Below, piece after piece: positions 45,721-55,538 of a stretch of 64,000 bases of DNA; the first letter of the stretch is position 1, and each line of letters starts with the position of its first letter. The DNA comes from Enterobacter phage CC31. A model generated the notes under the pieces. The model saw only the letters and a program-made list of their open reading frames with translations. It had not been told where the DNA came from and did not search any database. Position numbers and translations under genes: made by a program. Location of the stretch: the sequence record NC_014662.1; one strand, 5' to 3'.

Positions 45721-45728
45721 TATAAATA
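45721..45728 (+). promoter_or_regulatory. late promoter TATAAATA for gene 34
   Basis: Exact TATAAATA about 30 nt upstream of gene 34 ATG (45759); AGGAG SD. Confidence 0.7.
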
Positions 45729-45758: not shown

Positions 45759-48700
45759 ATGGCAGATTCAATCAAACGCAAGTTTCGTGGCGCTGAAGGC
45801 TTCGATGCTGCGGGTGAAAAAATAGTCAACGTTGCTACTGCTGACCGCACGGTGTTATCCGATGGCGTCAACGTTGAATTCCTTATACAAGAAAACACAT
45901 TACAACAATATGATGAAACACGTGGCTACACTTCTGGCTTCGCAGTAATTTACGACAACCGTATTTGGGTTTCAAATCGTGATATTGCAAAACCTGCCGG
46001 TGCATTCAACGAACTCTTCTGGAACTCAGTACGTACTGACGCCAAGTGGCGAGTAGTTTCAAGCGGAACCACTACTCTGAAATCAGGTGAATTCATTTCA
46101 GTCGACACCAATAAAGGTAACGACATGGTATTCACTCTGCCGAATAACCCACAAGACGGCGATACAATTATGCTGAAGGATATCGGGAACAAAACCGGTA
46201 CTGTAGGCGTAGTTATTAACGCATCAGTACAAGATATCGTTCTGCGTGACCCTACGAATAAAGTTCGTTCTGTTCGTATGACTCATCCGTTGTCTCAGTA
46301 CGTGTTTGTGTTCAGTAACAGATTGTGGAACCTTTACGTTTCAGATTACGCTCGTTATGCTCGCATTGTAACTCCAAGTGCAGTTGTACAAGCACAATCA
46401 AACGACTTTATCGTTCGTCGCTATACTTCTCCAGGTCCAATTCGTATCACTTTACCTAAGTTTGCGAATACCGGAGATATTATCAACTTTACTGACCTTG
46501 ATGGAAAGAACCCTCAATTCCACATGATTGTTAGTACTTTTGATGATAACACTAACATCGGTACTGTTGGTCAAAAATCAGTAGAAGTTCGTACTTCAGG
46601 CGACGGATTCATCGTATATGATGCTTCAGAATCTATCTGGAGAATCTGGGAAGGTGATTTACGCCCACGTATGCGTATCATCACTGATAACGTAACTTTA
46701 ATTCCAAACGATGTTGTTACTGTTTTTGGTGTAAATAACACTACCCAGAAAACTATTGACATCACTTTGCCTACTGATATTGCTGTTGGTGATACCGTCA
46801 CTATCGCAATGAATTATATGCGCAAAGGCCAAAAGGTAAATATCAGAGCAGCTACTGGAGACAAAATTGCTTCAAGTCTTCAATTACTGCAATTCCCTAA
46901 ACGCTCAGAGTATACGCCTGATGCAGCTTGGGTAATGAATGATGTTCTTACTTTCGACGGCACTACTTCTTATGTTCCAGTGCTTCAGTTATCTTATATT
47001 GAAAATGCTGGTTCAAAATACTGGATTGTAGCAGATAATGCTCCGACGGTAGAACGTGTTGATTCAAAAGATAATGAAACTCGTAAGCGTCTTGGTGTTA
47101 TTGCTCTTGCTTCTCAAGCTCAAGCTAACGTTGATTATGAAAATAGTCCAGAAAAAGAATTAGCAATTACTCCAGAGACTTTAGCAAACCGTATTGCTAC
47201 CAAGATTCGTCGTGGTATTGCTCGTCTGGTCACATTAACTGAAATTCAGGCTCCAACTTCTGGTCCGCATCTGGATGATGTTATTGTTACTCCAGCTATG
47301 CTGAATGAAAAAACAGCTACTGAAGAAAGACGCGGTGTTGCTGAAACCGCTACTCAGGCTGAAGCAAATGGTTCAACTGATGATGAAAGAATTGTTACTC
47401 CGAAGAAGCTGCATAACCGTATTGCTTCTGAGACGTTGACTGGTATTCTTAAATTAGTAAGAACTGTTGGAACTGCGGCGGGTATTGGACGAGATACGAA
47501 AGGTACTAACATTTATGACTATGATAACAACATTGATGCGGTAACTCCAAAATCACTGTTCCAATTCAAGTCTACTGAGCAAGCTCAGGGCGCTGTTTAT
47601 CTGGCTACTCAAAACGAAGTAATTGCTGGTGGTCCAGCTCAACCTGGTTTCCCAGTCGTTGTTACTCCACAAACGCTTCACGGTAAAACTTCAACTGATT
47701 CAAGAATCGGTTTGATTCAAATTGCTAAACAAGCTGAAGTAGATGCTGGCACAGATTACACAAAAGCAGTTACTCCTAAAACTCTGAATGACCGTAAGGC
47801 TCGTGAAGATTTAAGTGGTATTGCTGAAATTGCAACTCAAGCTGAATTTGATACTGGAACAGACGATACTCGTATCGTAACTCCATTAAAGGTTAAAACT
47901 CGTTTCAATTCAACCGATAGAACATCTGTTGTTGCTCTGTCTGGATTAGTTGAGCAAGGAACCTTGTGGGACCATTATACATTAGATATCAAAGAAGCAT
48001 CTGAGACCCAGCGTGGTACCGCTGCTCTGGCTACTCAAGTACAAGTTGATGCTGGCACTGATGATAAGACGATTGTTACGCCTAAGAAATTACAGGCTAA
48101 GAAAGCGACTGAGACTACCGAAGGTATTATCCAAGTTGCTAACCAAACTGAAACTGTAGCCGGCACCATCGCTATTAAAGCAGTTTCTCCGAAGAACTTG
48201 AAGTATATTGCTCAGGAAGAAAAAACTTGGGAATCTACTATAGCTCGTCGTGGTTTTGTTAAATTGTCAGAAAAAGCACTTACCTTTAAAGGGGATGCTA
48301 CTAATGGTTCTGGCCGTCTGCTTCCAGGTGACTTAATCAACGAACCTGCTTTGACAGATTTGCCTAAAGAAGGATATGCAGTATCTCCATATGAGATGAA
48401 CCGTGCGCTGCAATACTTCTTACCGGCTAAAGCGAAAGCTGTTGATTCTGATTTGCTTGATGGACTTGATTCAACTCAGTTTGTACGCCGTGATATCGAC
48501 CAAGTAGTTAATGGTAAAATTACGTTCAAAAAGGATGTTACTCTAGAAGCTCCTCTGGTGTCCTCTAGTACGGCCAAGTTCACTACCGTGAATGCTACTA
48601 TATCTGTTGATATTGGTGACACCCTGGGTAATTCTAGAATCAATTTGAATACTCTGGCGAATGGTTGGAACATCGAGACGCTGGCGAATGGTTCAACTCT

Positions 48701-49553
48701 TGATTTTACTGCCGTAGATAAAGTTCTGACACTTAATCGTAATGGAAACGTAACGGTTGCTCAGACTCTGACTGCAATGAACAAAGTTGATGCTAGTAAG
48801 GGCTTTTCAGTCGAAGGTGGTACAATGGTTATCAATCCTTCCTCTACTGAAATTGTCATTGGTACTCAATCTAAGCAAGTAACACTGCAGAACAAAGATG
48901 CTAAGACATTCTCAGTTGTAGACCCTTCTGGTACTTACACCATTCTGAATACCAAGAATGCTTTTGAAATAACGGCTCAAGGGTTCGTTAAGAAAGCTGG
49001 TGATTCAATGACTGGACCACTTCAAATTCAAGCTCCATTAACTGTTCAGATTCCTGAAGGACGAGTTGCTCCTGATGTTAAACCATCAGATGATAACCCA
49101 GCTTCATGGTCTGCATCAATTACCACAGCAACGATTTACAATAAGTTGCCTGGTTATGGTGTTCCAGTTATGGAAAAAGATTCTGAAGGACAAGATACTG
49201 GTTTCGTAGACCATTACGAATATGTTAAAGGTCCTGGTGTATTAACTCAACATGGTATTGGTAAGACTGCGGTCTATCAAATTTGGGCACCTCGCCCAAC
49301 AGTTCAAGAGTTAAACCACAATGCTCAGACTTTCTGGATTCGTAACTTCAACATTGTAACTAATGATTGGGACGAATGGGGTAAGATGTACACCTCAGTT
49401 CAGAGACCTACTGCAGGCGAAATTGGTGCTGTATCAACTTCTGGTTCGGCTTTCAATAACTTAACAATTCGCGACTGGTTACAAATTAAGAACGTTCGTA
49501 TTGTTCCTAATGAAACCACTCGTACTGTTGACTTCATTTGGGTTGATGAATAA
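45759..49553 (+). CDS. 34: long tail fibre proximal subunit gp34
   Basis: 1264 aa (T4 about 1289 aa); repetitive beta-rich fibre sequence; synteny 34-35-36-37. Confidence 0.9.
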   Translation: MADSIKRKFRGAEGFDAAGEKIVNVATADRTVLSDGVNVEFLIQENTLQQYDETRGYTSGFAVIYDNRIWVSNRDIAKPAGAFNELFWNSVRTDAKWRVVSSGTTTLKSGEFISVDTNKGNDMVFTLPNNPQDGDTIMLKDIGNKTGTVGVVINASVQDIVLRDPTNKVRSVRMTHPLSQYVFVFSNRLWNLYVSDYARYARIVTPSAVVQAQSNDFIVRRYTSPGPIRITLPKFANTGDIINFTDLDGKNPQFHMIVSTFDDNTNIGTVGQKSVEVRTSGDGFIVYDASESIWRIWEGDLRPRMRIITDNVTLIPNDVVTVFGVNNTTQKTIDITLPTDIAVGDTVTIAMNYMRKGQKVNIRAATGDKIASSLQLLQFPKRSEYTPDAAWVMNDVLTFDGTTSYVPVLQLSYIENAGSKYWIVADNAPTVERVDSKDNETRKRLGVIALASQAQANVDYENSPEKELAITPETLANRIATKIRRGIARLVTLTEIQAPTSGPHLDDVIVTPAMLNEKTATEERRGVAETATQAEANGSTDDERIVTPKKLHNRIASETLTGILKLVRTVGTAAGIGRDTKGTNIYDYDNNIDAVTPKSLFQFKSTEQAQGAVYLATQNEVIAGGPAQPGFPVVVTPQTLHGKTSTDSRIGLIQIAKQAEVDAGTDYTKAVTPKTLNDRKAREDLSGIAEIATQAEFDTGTDDTRIVTPLKVKTRFNSTDRTSVVALSGLVEQGTLWDHYTLDIKEASETQRGTAALATQVQVDAGTDDKTIVTPKKLQAKKATETTEGIIQVANQTETVAGTIAIKAVSPKNLKYIAQEEKTWESTIARRGFVKLSEKALTFKGDATNGSGRLLPGDLINEPALTDLPKEGYAVSPYEMNRALQYFLPAKAKAVDSDLLDGLDSTQFVRRDIDQVVNGKITFKKDVTLEAPLVSSSTAKFTTVNATISVDIGDTLGNSRINLNTLANGWNIETLANGSTLDFTAVDKVLTLNRNGNVTVAQTLTAMNKVDASKGFSVEGGTMVINPSSTEIVIGTQSKQVTLQNKDAKTFSVVDPSGTYTILNTKNAFEITAQGFVKKAGDSMTGPLQIQAPLTVQIPEGRVAPDVKPSDDNPASWSASITTATIYNKLPGYGVPVMEKDSEGQDTGFVDHYEYVKGPGVLTQHGIGKTAVYQIWAPRPTVQELNHNAQTFWIRNFNIVTNDWDEWGKMYTSVQRPTAGEIGAVSTSGSAFNNLTIRDWLQIKNVRIVPNETTRTVDFIWVDE

Positions 49554-50701
49554 TGGCTAAAATGATGGCGAGTTTTGGACAAGGATTTGTCCAAACTCAA
49601 GTTCTTTCTGAGAACAATTCCGTCAAGTATAAGCTAGCATTTGCGGCAGGGGTAGCTCAGTCTACCCCTTCTGAAGCTTATTATACTTTCCAGGATGAAC
49701 CTGCTGGGGTTCAATATGACGGCCCAGGTATAAACCTGAGAGAATTTAATCCAGCAACTAATCAAATGCTTAACTTCAAAACTTTTAATTTAAATCCTGA
49801 AGACGCAAACGCGGCTACTAAAGCATTTGTGCAACATATGCAAACCCTCCCGGCTTCTGATAATTTGCTTATCATTACATCATATGAGAGGCTTTATTCA
49901 AGCCCTTCTGTAGATGCTTTGATGAAATCTCTTGGTTCAGTTATGTGGCCAAGTATATTTCTTACTACAAATTATGGATGCAATTACTGTGCTTTGTACT
50001 CTATTAGAAGAAAGAAAATAATTGCTGAAAACACAACATATTCAGATTTCAAAAAAGAGAATAGAGACATACGTCCAGCTTTAGAATTCATTTATGATAA
50101 AGCAAATGATATCGGAGCTACTGGATATTCACAAAAAGCTATTGATGATTCAAACACATATATCATTGATAAAGATAATCCAAGTAAAAGATTTCCGCAG
50201 CAGCTTGAGCAAATATCTCCAATAAATCAATACGGAATTGCTCCTGGAGATAAAATGCAGTGGAACTTTGAAGTAAAAGGAGATTCTTCTTTAACAGCTC
50301 CAGGACAAAACATTAGAGTAAATCTTCGTTGGTTCCAAGGCACTTCATATCTTTCTGGAGCAGTAGTTGAAACACAACCGACTGACGCAGATAAATGGAT
50401 GTGGCACCAGAGATATGTAACCGTTCCTGATAATGCTGATGGATTTACAATAATTGCTTCTCGTTATCCAGAAGTAGCTGGTTCTGAAGGAAGCGGTGCT
50501 ATTCGTGAAATGATGCTCACTCAAGTATCGAGAGCTGTAGAACCTCTTATGGACCCGGCTGGATTTGGTGTAAACGGAATCAGAATGAACAATATGATTT
50601 CTGATGGTGTAGATGAAAATACACTGTTAGTTCTTCCTGATACAGAAGACGATAAATCTGGTAATATCTACTCGGCTGACTTCAGAGAGTATAATGACTA
50701 A
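49553..50701 (+). CDS. 35: long tail fibre hinge connector gp35
   Basis: 382 aa; TAATG coupling to gene 34. Confidence 0.82.
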   Translation: MAKMMASFGQGFVQTQVLSENNSVKYKLAFAAGVAQSTPSEAYYTFQDEPAGVQYDGPGINLREFNPATNQMLNFKTFNLNPEDANAATKAFVQHMQTLPASDNLLIITSYERLYSSPSVDALMKSLGSVMWPSIFLTTNYGCNYCALYSIRRKKIIAENTTYSDFKKENRDIRPALEFIYDKANDIGATGYSQKAIDDSNTYIIDKDNPSKRFPQQLEQISPINQYGIAPGDKMQWNFEVKGDSSLTAPGQNIRVNLRWFQGTSYLSGAVVETQPTDADKWMWHQRYVTVPDNADGFTIIASRYPEVAGSEGSGAIREMMLTQVSRAVEPLMDPAGFGVNGIRMNNMISDGVDENTLLVLPDTEDDKSGNIYSADFREYND

Positions 50702-50760: not shown

Positions 50761-51414
50761 ATGGCTGATTTAAAAGCTAACAGTACAATTGGCGGATTAC
50801 CGATTTGGCACCAGGGGAGTTTCCCTCTTTTTCCAATAAACGATACTCTGCTTTACAAGACTTATAAAGTCTACACAGAATATGATAAGCCACAAGCTGC
50901 AGATAACGACTTCGTTTCTAAAGCTAATGGCGGCATTTATGCAAAACCAGTTCAATTCAGTCAGGGATTAACTTTCCTGGATGATAAAGGAGCGACTGTT
51001 ACAATAGGCAAAGCCACTGGAACAGCTGGAGCAACTTATACTGCTTCAATCAAAGTTCCTGCTCAATTTGCTTTTGAGACTGGCGAAGGCAAACCATTTG
51101 TAATTTTTGACCCAGTAACTGACATGACTAAGCCTCGTCTTGTTGTAATGGGAGATGTCTTAGGCAAGTTTTTATACGACGAAGCTGGTCGAGTTTATTC
51201 ACCTGGAAATAAGCCAAATAACGTTGACGTTGGTTTAGGAAATGTAAGTAATGACGCCCAGGTGAAAATAAATACAACTACGTTACAAACAATGGCTGGT
51301 CCATTGGCTGCACCGAACTTAAGTTCTTTAAACGCAGCTTCTGCACCACAACACGTTCCACGTTTTGACCAGATTGTCGTAAGAGACTCTATTCAAGATT
51401 TCGGAACCTATTGA
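50761..51414 (+). CDS. 36: long tail fibre distal connector gp36
   Basis: 217 aa (T4 about 221 aa). Confidence 0.82.
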   Translation: MADLKANSTIGGLPIWHQGSFPLFPINDTLLYKTYKVYTEYDKPQAADNDFVSKANGGIYAKPVQFSQGLTFLDDKGATVTIGKATGTAGATYTASIKVPAQFAFETGEGKPFVIFDPVTDMTKPRLVVMGDVLGKFLYDEAGRVYSPGNKPNNVDVGLGNVSNDAQVKINTTTLQTMAGPLAAPNLSSLNAASAPQHVPRFDQIVVRDSIQDFGTY

Positions 51415-51421
51415 GGAATTT

Positions 51422-54034
51422 ATGGCAACTATCAAACAAATTCAATTTAAGCGTTCTAACGTTGCTGGTAAAAGACCGCTTCCAGCTGATATCGCTGAAG
51501 GCGAATTAGCAATTAATATCAAGGATTCGACTTTATTCACTAAGAACGCTGATGGGCAAATCATTGACCTCGGTTTTGCAAAAGGCGGCAGAATCGACGG
51601 TGACGTTGTACAAGTAGGTAATTATACTCAGACCGGTAATTACATTACTTCTGGTGATGTCAGTGCTAAAACTATTTTAGCCTCAGCAGGTGTTTCATCA
51701 AATGGTGATATTGTTGCTGAAAGAGGCGTAATTCGAACTCGTGCTGCTTCTTCAGGCAACGCTCATTTGTGGTTTGAAGGCGAAGAAATTACAGGTGAAA
51801 ACCGTAATAAAGAACGTGGTGTTTTATATGCTACCCAACAAACAGATACAGATGGGCGAGTAAACCTTCGAGTTTACAATGGTAAAGCCCACGCGGCTAA
51901 TACAAACAACGCGCTGTTCGTGTTTAACGGTGCCGGGGATTTCGCGGCTCCTAAAGATTTGTATGGCCAGCGCTCTCGTTTAAGTATTGAGTCTATAGCC
52001 CCAGTAATGAATACAAATCGCCTTTTAACGGCGAATAAACCATTCGCAAACCAAGTGTATAGCTTTGATGATATAGTCAATTATAAAGCCGGCGAGAATG
52101 GCGCTCTTGCGTTAAACTATGTGTACAAAGGCCGGGCGCATCAGACCGGCACGATTTGGCATCATTTAATCGACGAACGCGAAGCTCCTGAATGGGCTCT
52201 TTATACTGGTTCGGGTCCAGCAAATAAAATGTTCGCGATTCGTTCAGTTGGTACATTAGGACATGCTCAATTCACTGGTAGCTTATTCTTAGGTTCTGGT
52301 AGCAGTGGAACTGGTTTTGTATCTGGAATGGGTGAAGGTTCTTTAGCATTGGGTGATAATGATACTGGTTTCCGTAACGATGGCGACGGGATGTTTAGTG
52401 TAATGGCTAACTCTCGGGCTCTTGTTAATTATAATGCTTCAGCCCCGAAGTTCCAAATTGAGCACAGAAAAGCTACTAGAATCACCCACACTGATAATAC
52501 AAACACAACTATTCTTCCAAGTAACAACAATTCTTTATTGGAAATTGACACTTCGTTAGATGGAAATAATGCTGGTGGAAACGGGTTAACTCTTTTAGGT
52601 TATATTTCAAGCGGAAAATATTATCATTATTTCAGAGGTTCTGGATATGTAGCTTATGATATGGATGAAGGCGTTAAAATTAATAAAGGTGGCTTGAATG
52701 TAGGCGGTAATACATCTATAACAGGAAATACTTATGTAACTGGCGCTGTTACATCAAATGGACAGTTTAAAACTTCCGCAAATGATGGTTTAAAAATTTG
52801 GAATGGCGATTATGGTATGATACTGCGTCGTTCTGAAAATAACTTTTATCTTATCCCAACTGCGCAAGGTCAAGCCGAAAATGGTGGTATTAGTAATTTG
52901 CGCCCGTTTTATATTGATTGTGCTACCGGCAACGCTACTTTAGGACATAACGTAACAATTAATGGCCAATCTACGTTAAATGGCAACGTTACTTTAGGTT
53001 CGGGTCAAATTAACTTGCTTGGGGGTTCAGGTAATATTGGATTTGCAAAAGCAGGTACAAGCCCTTATTCAATGCGAATTTTCTATGCTGGGAATACTGA
53101 ACGTGGCAACAGACTAGAAATAGCTGATGATTCGTCTTATTTGATGTATATTGAACGTCATCCATCTATAGGTATTCAATTAGTTACTAATGGTGGTCAC
53201 ATAAAAACTAATGCTGGTAGCGTTTATACTGAAGCTATAGCGTTAAATAGCGGTGCAAGATTTGTGGCTGATGGAAACATTTATTTACCAAATGCTACTA
53301 ACGGATTTTCTGCTGGTTGGGTATTAGGTCAAATTAACAGCCGTCTTAACGCTGCTGTTCAAAAATCTGGCGATACCATGACTGGTACCTTGACTATTAA
53401 CAACGGTGCAAACACTGGTGTAATGGTTTCTGGTATTACATCTGGTAGTGATAAAGGATTAATACGAGGTAACGTCGACGGTGGCGCTCATGATCAATGG
53501 GAAAACCGTTCTTCTGGTCTTCAATTAGATTGCCCGAGTTCCGATGATAGCGCATATAACGTATGGAAAGCAACTAAATGGGGAGCTTATCATATTGCTG
53601 CAATGGACGTTTATGCTCCAAGTGGTAATGGTTATGTTCGCTTAGTTATTCGTAACGGCGGAGCCCACATTTGGAATAACAGCAGTTATACTTCTCCAGT
53701 GCAGATTAATGCTCCAGAATTTTATCTGACTTCAGATATTTCGTTGAAGAAAGATATTCGTTCAATCGAAGATTCTCGTTCTAACTTGCATAAAGTTGAA
53801 ATTAAACGATATGCAATGAAAGATGGTTCTAACGATAATGCAATCGGTGTTATTGCACAAGAAGTTCAAGAAGTTTATCCAGAACTTGTTAATGAAAATA
53901 AAGACACTGGCAAATTATCTGTTAACTATCGTGGACTTTCTTCTGTTCTTTGGAAAATTGTTCAAGAGCAAGATAAAGAATTGGAAGATGTTAAATCTCG
54001 TTTAGCTCGCATTGAAGAACTTTTGTCTAAATAA
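51422..54034 (+). CDS. 37: long tail fibre distal subunit gp37 with C-terminal intramolecular-chaperone-like domain
   Basis: 870 aa; C-terminus SDISLKKDIRSIED...VIAQEVQEVYPELV...ELEDVKSRLARIEELL resembles autoproteolytic intramolecular chaperone domains of phage fibres. Confidence 0.85.
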   Translation: MATIKQIQFKRSNVAGKRPLPADIAEGELAINIKDSTLFTKNADGQIIDLGFAKGGRIDGDVVQVGNYTQTGNYITSGDVSAKTILASAGVSSNGDIVAERGVIRTRAASSGNAHLWFEGEEITGENRNKERGVLYATQQTDTDGRVNLRVYNGKAHAANTNNALFVFNGAGDFAAPKDLYGQRSRLSIESIAPVMNTNRLLTANKPFANQVYSFDDIVNYKAGENGALALNYVYKGRAHQTGTIWHHLIDEREAPEWALYTGSGPANKMFAIRSVGTLGHAQFTGSLFLGSGSSGTGFVSGMGEGSLALGDNDTGFRNDGDGMFSVMANSRALVNYNASAPKFQIEHRKATRITHTDNTNTTILPSNNNSLLEIDTSLDGNNAGGNGLTLLGYISSGKYYHYFRGSGYVAYDMDEGVKINKGGLNVGGNTSITGNTYVTGAVTSNGQFKTSANDGLKIWNGDYGMILRRSENNFYLIPTAQGQAENGGISNLRPFYIDCATGNATLGHNVTINGQSTLNGNVTLGSGQINLLGGSGNIGFAKAGTSPYSMRIFYAGNTERGNRLEIADDSSYLMYIERHPSIGIQLVTNGGHIKTNAGSVYTEAIALNSGARFVADGNIYLPNATNGFSAGWVLGQINSRLNAAVQKSGDTMTGTLTINNGANTGVMVSGITSGSDKGLIRGNVDGGAHDQWENRSSGLQLDCPSSDDSAYNVWKATKWGAYHIAAMDVYAPSGNGYVRLVIRNGGAHIWNNSSYTSPVQINAPEFYLTSDISLKKDIRSIEDSRSNLHKVEIKRYAMKDGSNDNAIGVIAQEVQEVYPELVNENKDTGKLSVNYRGLSSVLWKIVQEQDKELEDVKSRLARIEELLSK

Positions 54035-54037
54035 TTT

Positions 54038-54053
54038 AAGGGCCTTCGGGCCC
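54038..54053 (+). terminator. hairpin AGGGCC-TTCG-GGCCCT after gene 37
   Basis: Read directly; no strong T-run, may be a stability/processing element. Confidence 0.45.
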
Positions 54054-54067
54054 TAGAGGATTTTTAT

Positions 54068-54853
54068 ATGGCTATAGCTGGTCCTAATATTGGGACATCA
54101 TGGTTTAGAGAAACCGGTCAAAGACCGATGTCTGCCGCTCGAGTGGCAGTAAGACTTCCGGCAAGACCTGGAGGCGCTCGACAAATGGTTGGCTTATCTA
54201 AAGAAGTAAATTATAACATCGGCGCAAATAACTCTTACAATAAAGACACATTAATTAACTACTTACGCTCTCAAGGCTCAACACCTGTAGTTGTTACTAT
54301 CACTGGTAATTTAGTAAGTTATAGTTCTGGTGTAGCATGTCTTGAATTTCCGGCTAATTTACCAAATGCTTATGTACATCTCATTATAAATGGCGGTGTT
54401 ACTCTTTATGGAAGAGGAGGTAACGGTGGCGTTAAAGGGAATGGAGCTGCAGGCGGTCATGCTATTAACAACCAATTTGGTACTCGTCTTCGTATTACAA
54501 ATAACGGTGCAATAGCAGGCGGTGGTGGTGGAGGTGGAGGAAACTCTGCTAATGGTGGTATGGGTGGTGGTGGTAGACCATTTGGTTATGCCGATAAAAC
54601 ACATCCGCCTGCTGCAGCTACTTCACGTGCTGCTACTGATGGTACTTTAACATCTCCAGGTATTGGTGCTGAATATAAAATTGGTACTGCAGTTCAATAT
54701 ACTTGTGGTTCTGGTGGTAATGTTGGAGCAAATGGTGGTGCATCTACAGGAAGGTTAGGAACAAACTATGGAGGCGGATCTGCCGGTAGAGCTGTTATAG
54801 GTAATGCTCCTACATGGAATAAAGTTGGTACCATTTATGGGTCACGAGTTTAA
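54068..54853 (+). CDS. 38: receptor-recognising adhesin gp38 (T2/T6 type, glycine-rich motifs)
   Basis: 261 aa; conserved N-terminal fibre-attachment region and poly-Gly tracts (GGGGGGGGNSANGGMGGGGRPFG) separating variable segments. Confidence 0.85.
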   Translation: MAIAGPNIGTSWFRETGQRPMSAARVAVRLPARPGGARQMVGLSKEVNYNIGANNSYNKDTLINYLRSQGSTPVVVTITGNLVSYSSGVACLEFPANLPNAYVHLIINGGVTLYGRGGNGGVKGNGAAGGHAINNQFGTRLRITNNGAIAGGGGGGGGNSANGGMGGGGRPFGYADKTHPPAAATSRAATDGTLTSPGIGAEYKIGTAVQYTCGSGGNVGANGGASTGRLGTNYGGGSAGRAVIGNAPTWNKVGTIYGSRV

Positions 54854-54881
54854 ACATAAATACCCTTGAAAAGGAGGGTAT

Positions 54882-55538
54882 ATGACCCAGAGAACACCAC
54901 TACCAGGAATATCTGACATTTTATTTGGTGTTCTAGACAGACTCTTCAAAGATAACGCAACCGGGAGGGTACTTGCTTCCCGGATTGTTGCTCTGATAGT
55001 TGTTTTCATTCTTTCGCTTACATGGTATCGCTTGGATGCTATAATGCAAGTATGGAAAGAGTCTCGTTATGAGACTTACACTAAAGTTTTGCAACAAGAT
55101 AAAGAGGCTAAATTTGAAGCATCAGCTCTAGAACAACTACAGATAGCTCACGTTTCGAGCAATGCAGATTTTTCCGCAATTTACTCATTTAGACCACGCA
55201 ACTTAAACTACTTTGTGGATTTAATTGCATATGAAGGGCGACTGCCTAGCACAGTCAACGAAAAAAATTTGGGAGGATTTCCAGTTGATAAGACTTCGAA
55301 CGAATATTCTGCTCATTTGAGAGGTGCATATTTCTCTTCTGAGGATGAATTTGTTTTCTTACCGACTAAGAAAAAGGATGGGGAGTTGAAGTACATGTAC
55401 TCGTGCCCGTATTTCAACCTGGACAACGTTTATGCCGGGACAGTTTCCATGTACTGGTATAGCAAACCACTCTTAAATGAAAATAGATTGGCCGCAATTT
55501 GTAGTCAAGCTGCTAGAACTTTAGGAAGAGCCAAGTAA
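54882..55538 (+). CDS. t: holin T
   Basis: 218 aa (same as T4 holin as recalled); near-identical blocks (SDILFGVLDRLFKDNATG, YMYSCPYFNLDN, QAARTLGRAK); one N-terminal TM helix. Confidence 0.95.
   Translation: MTQRTPLPGISDILFGVLDRLFKDNATGRVLASRIVALIVVFILSLTWYRLDAIMQVWKESRYETYTKVLQQDKEAKFEASALEQLQIAHVSSNADFSAIYSFRPRNLNYFVDLIAYEGRLPSTVNEKNLGGFPVDKTSNEYSAHLRGAYFSSEDEFVFLPTKKKDGELKYMYSCPYFNLDNVYAGTVSMYWYSKPLLNENRLAAICSQAARTLGRAK

Follow-up and report, generated by a model that had tools for sequence, protein, structure and literature searches.

A T2/S16-type long tail fibre tip in Enterobacter phage CC31, with a gp38 adhesin of probable mosaic origin

Genes 37 and 38 of Enterobacter phage CC31 (NC_014662.1) code for the distal end of its long tail fibre, and they raise the question of whether gp38 is a receptor-binding adhesin capping a proteolytically matured gp37, as in the phages T2 and S16, or an assembly chaperone only, as in T4, and of how the specificity of such a tip may shift. 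Both genes lie in a 64,000-nt stretch of the phage genome, the window, whose numbering is used below. This stretch is part of a genome of the genus Karamvirus (PG7-like, Straboviridae), that is, of a T4-like Enterobacter phage, and its last 24 kb display 90-93% DNA identity, over 84-92% of the length, to Karamvirus genomes from Enterobacter, Cronobacter, and Klebsiella. The region very probably encodes the distal tip of a long tail fibre that is built, in this Karamvirus, on the T2/S16 plan. The features concerned, including the intramolecular chaperone (IMC) domain of gp37, are the following:

51422-54034, + strand: gene 37, long tail fibre distal subunit precursor, 870 amino acids plus stop (open reading frame, Pfam, PHROG)
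53342-53731, + strand: gp37 distal tip, residues 641-770, ending in ...QINAPEFYLT770 (alignment with T2 and S16)
53729-53749, + strand: predicted autocleavage site Thr770-Ser771, with Lys776 five residues past the serine (alignments)
53732-54031, + strand: IMC domain (Peptidase_S74), gp37 residues 771-870, with a long C-terminal helix at its end (Pfam, PDB profile matches, AlphaFold)
54068-54853, + strand: gene 38, monomeric tail-fibre adhesin, 261 amino acids plus stop (open reading frame, Pfam, PHROG)
54068-54187, + strand: N-terminal attachment domain of gp38, residues 1-40, Karamvirus type (model, alignment)
54410-54802, + strand: Gly-rich motif/hypervariable region, gp38 residues 115-245, 33% Gly (entropy profile, structural match to S16 and PP01 gp38)
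54518-54541, + strand: 8-Gly run G151-G158, codons GGC GGT GGT GGT GGA GGT GGA GGA

The initial annotation of this DNA named a T2-type gp38 adhesin next to gp37, and this assignment holds. Gene 38 lies directly 3' of a gp37 gene coding for a C-terminal IMC, with an intergenic gap of 33 nt. Its product was recognised by Pfam GP38 (PF05268; E 1.6e-74, 250.9 bits, cut-off 25; residues 46-261), Pfam Gp38_N (PF21721; E 2.1e-8, 34.5 bits, cut-off 25; residues 1-37), and PHROG 2056 (E 7e-86), and matched S16 gp38 (6F45_D; E 1.1e-43 across residues 1-259) and PP01 gp38 (9V85; E 8e-30). An AlphaFold2 model made with 86 sequences reached a mean predicted local distance difference test (pLDDT) score of 91.5. 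Foldseek comparison of this model with the PDB returned 6F45_D (E 8.6e-21, template modelling (TM) scores 0.79/0.83) and 9V85_C (TM 0.72/0.84), and nothing beyond 6F45 and 9V85 at E <= 0.001. The predicted fold is the three-domain adhesin fold, consisting of an N-terminal helical attachment domain, a beta-helix, and a polyglycine-II sandwich, which is also found in the S16 tip complex (PDB 6F45), where the sandwich has a central 8-Gly helix; over its full length, S16 gp38 is 43-47% identical to CC31 gp38.

The arrangement differs from that of T4, as had been suspected. T4 gp38, which no Pfam family recognises, displays no similarity to CC31 gp38 (BLASTP E = 60), and CC31 gp38 does not belong to the T4-type gp38 proteins that act as assembly chaperones. 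Furthermore, the domains of T4 gp37 are Collar and Phage_fiber, S74 being absent, whereas CC31 gp37 contains S74 and neither Collar nor Phage_fiber. T2 (AP018813; EcT2_00254 and EcT2_00255), in contrast, possesses a Pfam architecture identical to that of CC31, with Gp34_trimer and a C-terminal Peptidase_S74 in gp37 (S74 at residues 1243-1300, E 3.3e-15; IMC of 99 amino acids versus 100 in CC31) and Gp38_N plus GP38 in gp38. In addition, the T2 strand preceding the cleavage site, INAPNVYIR^SD, is similar to INAPEFYLT^SD of CC31, gene t is located downstream in both phages, and both have a UUCG hairpin between genes 37 and 38. The proteins themselves have diverged, as gp38 of T2 is ~51-57% identical to that of CC31 and T2 gp37 counts 1341 amino acids versus 870. 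The T2-type arrangement is the predominant form among T-even phages and not an exception (PMC6851490, PMC3157838). It is highly improbable that CC31 gp38 would be an assembly chaperone only, the receptor being bound by the gp37 tip itself. The tryptophan prongs of S16-style docking are indeed missing from CC31 gp38, and the gp37 tip domain is lineage-specific, as could be expected in that case, but gp38 matches the S16 and PP01 adhesins over its full length in sequence and fold and does not resemble T4 gp38. Moreover, CC31 gp37 has a removable IMC at its end instead of a Collar/needle receptor domain as in T4, and mutations in the hypervariable loops of gp38 alter adsorption in the Karamvirus Pet-CM3-4 (PMC10194368).

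The part of the adhesin that would contact the host is built of conserved Gly motifs alternating with variable segments. That polyglycine tracts flank variable segments had been noticed from the sequence of CC31, and an alignment of 92 homologues confirmed it: column entropy amounted to 0.32-0.92 bits in the Gly-rich motifs and to 1.74-2.45 bits in the segments between them, and within residues 115-245 the Gly columns averaged 0.60 bits versus 1.70 bits for the non-Gly columns. The conserved motifs are GRGGNGG (residues 115-121), GAAGG (126-130), AGGGGGGG (150-157), MGGGGRPFG (165-173), GSGGNVGANGG (214-224), and GGGSAGRAVIG (235-245); a beta-helix turn at residues 131-149 separates the first two from the later ones. 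In S16, the Gly motifs form polyglycine-II helices, the distal loops of which have been proposed to bind the receptor (PMC6851490, PMC12032242), and region 115-245 of CC31 gp38 is likewise predicted to be a polyglycine-II sandwich with receptor-binding loops. The 8-Gly run of CC31 corresponds to the central polyglycine-II helix of S16 gp38, 151-GGGGGGGG-158 (PMC6851490), and the longest Gly run counts 7-9 residues in 86 of the 92 homologues. The Gly-codon string GGCGGTGGTGGTGGAGGTGGAGG, which encodes most of G151-G158, occurs once, as reported before, albeit at 54518-54540, 3 nt away from the position first given (54521-54543).

By analogy with its characterised relatives, gp38 would be located at the fibre tip of the virion and bind the receptor. 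In Pet-CM3-4, the gp37 gene of which is ~87% identical in DNA to that of CC31 and of which lipopolysaccharide (LPS) is the receptor, phages with the substitution K163Q in one of the hypervariable segments of the gp38 homologue adsorb less well and infect a narrower range of hosts (PMC10194368). The characterised gp38 closest to that of CC31 is ~57% identical, and the loops of CC31 gp38 are unrelated to those of Pet-CM3-4, T2, S16, and PP01, so that no receptor can be assigned. In particular, the T2 receptors FadL and OmpF are not transferable to CC31, as the T2 loops differ. Similarly, the beta-helix and loop body of the Karamvirus adhesins (Pet-CM3-4 gp264, KaAlpha, PG7, and the second gp38 of phage EnA02) is only 46-59% identical to that of CC31, DNA similarity having disappeared after ~54157, and therefore the LPS receptor of Pet-CM3-4 cannot be assumed for CC31.

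The gene upstream codes for the subunit onto which this adhesin would dock. Its product matched PHROG 1699 ('long tail fiber protein distal subunit', E 4.5e-233), and the gene is ~87-88% identical at the nucleotide level to other Karamvirus gp37 genes, IMC included. Pfam domains were found at residues 398-498 (Gp34_trimer) and 771-823 (Peptidase_S74; PF13884, 'chaperone of endosialidase'; E 4.2e-12, 46.6 bits, cut-off 22). The latter domain accounts for the C-terminus SDISLKKDIRSIED...AIGVIAQEVQEVYPELV...RLARIEELL (residues 771-868), rightly likened at first sight to the autoproteolytic chaperone domains of phage fibres. The interval 53700-54853, which had been proposed to hold this chaperone-like domain and gp38, ends at the gp38 stop, as it should, and begins ~10 codons too far upstream, the IMC starting at 53732. 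The C-terminal 123 residues align with the S16 gp37 construct crystallised in 6F45 (6F45_A; E 3.6e-11 with a single sequence). A 12-sequence profile (CC31 and 11 homologues) compared with solved structures recovered the same S16 chain (E 1.4e-22), the tail fibre 8JOV (5e-18), a fragment of myelin regulatory factor (MYRF; 7DC3, 1.5e-10), and the neck appendage chaperone, an IMC, of phage GA-1 (3GUD, E 2e-6). The underlying homology search with the C-terminal 230 amino acids yielded 11 proteins only and missed known Karamvirus gp37 proteins, which makes the alignment adequate for motifs and shallow for modelling.

Several residues agree with the predicted cleavage site. Ser771, Asp772, and Lys776 were invariant both in an alignment with T2, S16, and other Karamvirus gp37 proteins and in that of CC31 with the 11 database homologues, and in the latter the motif G-x-IAQEV (residues 809-815) was invariant too; the comparison with T2 gp37 and gp38 that had been advised at the outset thus gave conserved S/D/K residues at the cleavage site besides the identical Pfam architecture. 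In S16, gp37 is reported to be cleaved at DLNVS^SDRRIKK (PMC7917993), a motif with which the CC31 site aligns, the IMCs being homologous. In T5 pb1, the Thr1263-Ser1264 bond is cut and Lys1269 activates Ser1264 (PMC4690869). T2 and T6 gp37 are cleaved C-terminally and then capped by gp38 (PMC3157838). The CC31 site, EFYLT770^S771DISLK776, combines a Thr-Ser bond with a Lys at +5, as in T5 pb1, and the strand before the bond reads EFYLT in CC31, DLNVS in S16, and NVYIR in T2. The endosialidase, T5 pb1, and GA-1 gp12 IMCs (MEROPS S74) have the Pfam family, the Ser/Lys(+5) pair, and the C-terminal helix in common with CC31, although the T5 IMC is longer (133 versus 100 amino acids). By homology, the chaperone is predicted to comprise residues 771-870 and mature gp37 to end at Thr770. 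In S16, the released chaperone exposes the surface on which gp38 docks (PMC7917993, PMC6851490), and the CC31 tip (residues 641-770) may represent the corresponding surface. Accordingly to this analogy, IMC release in CC31 would lay open a docking site for a separate adhesin, whereas in the endosialidase, T5 pb1, and GA-1 group it exposes the receptor-binding domain itself.

It is very unlikely that gp37 would retain the S74-like domain without cleavage, as a lasting C-terminal knob. For such a knob it may be said that cleavage in CC31 is predicted by homology and that the Arg/Asp residues of a neighbouring subunit that serve as 'folding sensor' in T5 pb1 could not be mapped onto CC31 gp37. 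Against this, the Thr-Ser pair is conserved, as are the Lys at +5 and the GxIAQEV motif, cleavage takes place in the homologous gp37 proteins of S16 and T2 (PMC7917993, PMC3157838), and a retained IMC would block the surface that gp38 caps in S16.

Upstream in the same protein, residues 299-339 (52316-52438) with the motif GDNDTGFRNDGDGMFSVMANS match the triangular domain of S16 (GDNDTG...). This domain abuts the IMC in S16, whereas it is positioned ~400 residues upstream in CC31, with the Gp34_trimer-like domain (398-498) in between, which implies the insertion or duplication of a fibre module.

Taken together, the comparison with S16, T2, T5 pb1, and endosialidase suggests the following course of maturation. 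The 870-amino-acid gp37 precursor would be made first, its C-terminal IMC driving trimerisation and beta-helical folding of the fibre. Correct folding of the trimer would position Ser771 and Lys776, whereupon the Thr770-Ser771 bond would be cut and the chaperone trimer would depart. One gp38 molecule would then cap the exposed tip (...QINAPEFYLT) by means of its N-terminal three-helix domain, and its hypervariable loops, borne by the rigid polyglycine-II sandwich, would bind an outer-membrane receptor of Enterobacter and set the host range; this last step leans on the genus-level experiment with Pet-CM3-4 K163Q (PMC10194368). Later shifts in specificity may come both from point mutations affecting the loops and from recombination where the coding sequence is conserved.

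Some observations weigh against a straightforward transfer of the S16/T2 scheme. In the first place, it is from related systems that gp37 cleavage, the incorporation of gp38 into virions, and receptor binding are extrapolated to CC31. Secondly, the tip domain that precedes the cleavage site is specific to the lineage, few homologues of it being recovered. When gp37 residues 641-870 were modelled as a monomer with AlphaFold, from the 12-sequence alignment, the IMC part obtained pLDDT values of 78-94, with a helix at fragment residues 196-229, and the tip part (fragment residues 1-131) remained below 50; Foldseek found no match for this monomeric tip-plus-IMC model in the PDB at E <= 0.001, the IMC fold being an intertwined trimer. 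Thirdly, gp38 of S16 docks via three tryptophans (W7, W20, and W36) that are said to be conserved among the adhesins (PMC6851490), and these prongs are absent from CC31 gp38, where the corresponding residues are N7 (aligned as a gap), P20, and G36. Likewise, the Gp38_N score is 34.5 bits in CC31 versus 61.7 bits in T2, which has the prongs W9, W22, and W37. Without Trp prongs and with this lower score, the geometry of docking on gp37 may differ from that in S16 and T2.

The missing prongs are nevertheless a feature of the lineage. Tryptophan occupies the three prong positions in 71, 70, and 39 of the 92 homologues, respectively, and 21 of the 92 lack it at the first two, all Karamvirus-type sequences being among these; indeed, the N-terminal domains of Pet-CM3-4 gp264, KaAlpha, PG7, and the second EnA02 gp38 are as devoid of Trp prongs as that of CC31. 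The CC31 attachment domain is predicted by AlphaFold to contain three helices (residues 8-16, 21-27, and 37-40). DNA identity to KaAlpha amounts to 87-96% across 53362-54075 and 85% at 54031-54120, and falls gradually to ~52% by 54165-54254. These values argue that the tip and IMC of gp37 were co-inherited with the attachment domain of gp38. Given this co-inheritance, the absent Trp prongs, and the different pre-cleavage strand, the docking interface may be a lineage-specific variant.

Beyond the attachment domain, CC31 gp38 changes its affinities. Residues 1-40 are 70-78% identical to Karamvirus gp38 proteins and 50-52% to the relatives of the body, whereas for residues 117-261 identity amounts to 80-85% with a group from phage-plasmids (P0002-P0004) and to 46-52% with Karamvirus gp38 proteins. 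The protein hence appears to be a chimera of a Karamvirus attachment domain and a receptor-binding body from a clade that resides mainly on SSU5-like phage-plasmids. Such a gp38 was found in 86 PLSDB records, beside a gene for a 1359-amino-acid fibre that also ends in an S74 chaperone. The host elements carry ParA, are non-mobilisable, measure ~107-124 kb, and come mostly from Enterobacter, Escherichia, and Citrobacter (e.g. NZ_CP110356). One locus of this kind was located in a Logan contig:

L007 1857-6789 (Logan SRR29386521 contig): phage-plasmid fibre and gp38 locus

After EnA02, the phage-plasmid gp38 proteins are the closest to the receptor-binding body of CC31, with the unusual loop KTHPPAAATSRAATDGTLT in common. 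Their N-terminal domain, however, has W, W, and N at the prong positions, and the accompanying fibre ends in ...FNDVYIR^SD. These elements are temperate and related to the siphovirus SSU5, and thus represent another type of virus than CC31. At the DNA level, their gp38 genes are ~72% identical to that of CC31, indicating that the exchange was not recent. Among T4-like phages other than EnA02, no gp38 exceeded ~63% identity to that of CC31, and the literature search made found no discussion of gp38 in SSU5-like phage-plasmids.

Two database records deserve mention in this context. The best gp38 match besides EnA02 among the phage matches listed was that of Krischvirus ELT3 (PQ368571; L003 4001-4777), which is situated among small hypothetical open reading frames near tk and rI, away from gp37, in agreement with the displaced g38 reported for RB49 (PMC3157838). 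In the PG7 record (NC_023561; L004 4001-4030), gp38 is annotated from an internal start (252 amino acids), and the DNA contains the normal MAIAGPNIGT codons 22 nt upstream of the annotated start, in a different frame, which suggests a frameshift or a sequencing error in this reference record.

The nearest relative of the CC31 tip as a whole is EnA02 (PQ096440), in which this gp37 type and the first gp38 are both annotated as 'hypothetical protein'. Its first gp38 (EnA02_0267) is 98.9% identical to CC31 gp38 in amino acids. According to sliding identity, 53290-54831 is 96-100% identical to EnA02 in DNA, except for two small codon differences near the 3' end of gp38, and downstream of gp38 the identity again amounts to 98-100%. 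Upstream, at ~51640-53100, gp37 is KaAlpha-like (mostly 80-98%) and only 37-87%, mostly 40-80%, identical to EnA02, which has a gp37 N-terminal half of another type. The best match switches to EnA02 from ~53290, and a patch at 53287-53400 is ~62% identical to KaAlpha and PG7. By these identity profiles, gp37 is itself mosaic.

Unlike CC31, which has one gp38 gene, EnA02 and an independent metagenomic contig have a second, PG7-type gp38 gene after a spacer (181 nt in EnA02):

L001 4001-4786 and 4968-5750: EnA02 tandem gp38 genes, between gp37 and t
L008 6001-6786 and 6941-7723: metagenomic contig, tandem gp38 genes, between gp37 and t

Of 664 phage records, EnA02 alone yielded two gp38 matches, and its tandem genes could provide mixed fibre tips or a dual host range. 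As to the spacer of EnA02 (L001 4787-4967, 181 nt), it contains a long inverted repeat, CGACTGGATTCCGCTTGGGAAT...ATTCCCAAGCGGTCG, and a 27-nt direct repeat that is present twice in EnA02 and once in L008; the spacer has no counterpart in the window.

A four-way DNA alignment and sliding identity located the following junction in CC31:

54832-54837, + strand: recombination junction, codons T255-Y257 of the conserved C-terminal motif

Up to 54831, CC31 gp38 follows the first gp38 of EnA02, and from 54838 on it follows the 3' end of the second one and the flank of gene t; a block of 22 nt (54832-54853) is exactly shared between CC31 and the second EnA02 gp38 (gp38b). The last ~20 nt of CC31 gp38 thus appear to stem from a second, PG7-type gp38. 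On the simplest reading, this second copy was deleted by homologous recombination between conserved 3' ends. Alternatively, a double crossover replacing the body of a PG7-type gene would have had the same outcome. As a tentative proposal, with the chances somewhat against it, the Karamvirus gp37-gp38 junction may be a distinct variant in which docking proceeds without tryptophans, the adhesin body is drawn from a pool common to virulent T4-like myoviruses and temperate SSU5-like phage-plasmids, and a tandem-gp38 state such as that of EnA02 is the intermediate towards single-adhesin phages, via recombination in the conserved 3' motif.

The position of this junction also bears on the suggestion, made in the initial annotation, that the repetitive Gly-codon DNA is a natural substrate for slippage and recombination. 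That host-range switching would proceed mainly by slippage or recombination within Gly-codon repeats is unlikely. In its favour, Gly-rich motifs have been proposed as recombination hotspots in the literature (PMC12032242), most homologues have a longest Gly run of 7 to 9 residues, variable in length, and divergent gp38 genes are somewhat more alike in DNA within the Gly motifs than outside them (~73% at 54476-54535 versus ~45% around). However, the tracts are interrupted by mixed GGC, GGT, and GGA codons. The longest perfect triplet run in gp38 is 4xGGT (54563-54574), and Tandem Repeats Finder (TRF) reported only a 20-nt array of period 6, with a score of 33. Inside the Gly motifs, stretches of exact identity to divergent gp38 genes extend over no more than 11-14 nt, some being out of register, and no insertion columns occur within the 8-Gly tract among the 92 sequences. 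Furthermore, the sole crossover that could be reconstructed (54832-54837) is located in the conserved 3' motif, outside the Gly tracts. According to Trojet et al. (PMC3157838), exchange takes place within or near conserved motifs, the conserved flanks of the specificity domain being the preferred sites, with which the 3' junction of CC31 agrees. Microhomology is hence present in the Gly motifs, without evidence of its use, and the suggested role of these repeats is not borne out.

The fibre genes of CC31 are arranged as 34-35-36-37-38-t, an order that is also annotated in T2, S16, and T4. The neighbours of genes 37 and 38, followed by asiA on the minus strand next after gene t, and the hairpin between them are:

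45759-49553, + strand: gp34 (open reading frames, Pfam, PHROG)
49553-50701, + strand: gp35, hinge connector protein (open reading frames, Pfam, PHROG)
50761-51414, + strand: gp36 (open reading frames, Pfam, PHROG)
54039-54054, + strand: intergenic hairpin A-GGGCC-UUCG-GGCCC-U (sequence reading and RNA folding)
54882-55538, + strand: gene t (holin), downstream neighbour of gene 38 (Pfam Phage_holin_T, E 1.3e-77)

The window contains no second gp38 or IMC copy elsewhere and no tRNA genes. For gp35, a sub-threshold Pfam ILEI match (E 5e-5, 24.1 bits versus a cut-off of 27) is probably due to chance. Ten copies of the T4 late-promoter octamer TATAAATA are present in the window, versus 3.4 expected. 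No copy lies directly upstream of gp37 or gp38, the nearest one on the + strand being at 45721-45728, 31 nt upstream of the gp34 start, and gp38 is presumably co-transcribed with the upstream fibre genes. The intergenic hairpin sits between the gp37 stop (54032-54034) and the Shine-Dalgarno sequence of gp38 (GAGGA, 54056-54060). Hairpins with other stem sequences occupy the equivalent site in T2 (GAGGGC-UUCG-GCCCUC), S16 (GAGCC-UACG-GGCUC), and an SSU5-like element, which suggests a conserved RNA element, with a possible role in mRNA stability or processing. A function as intrinsic terminator was rejected, as the + strand has no U-run directly after the stem and the energy z-score is -1.25. 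A further hairpin (54860-54881; AUACCCU...AGGGUAU, -11 kcal/mol, z -2.7), conserved in KaAlpha, overlaps the Shine-Dalgarno sequence of gene t (GGAGGG) and could limit the translation of t.

As a host-recognition module, the CC31 tip is an ordinary one. Both protein families are well studied, and with gp38 copies of ~99% identity already public, the locus teaches nothing new on the mechanism. Its interest resides elsewhere. The attachment domain without tryptophans may be used for testing the specificity of gp37-gp38 docking. The gp38 gene offers an example of adhesin replacement in nature, with a junction mapped to 6 nt, and evidence that one loop set occurs in both lytic and temperate Enterobacter phages. 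Lastly, as the range of bacteria to which a T-even-type phage can adsorb is decided by its gp37/gp38 tip, correct annotation of this tip matters for choosing or engineering Enterobacter therapy phages.

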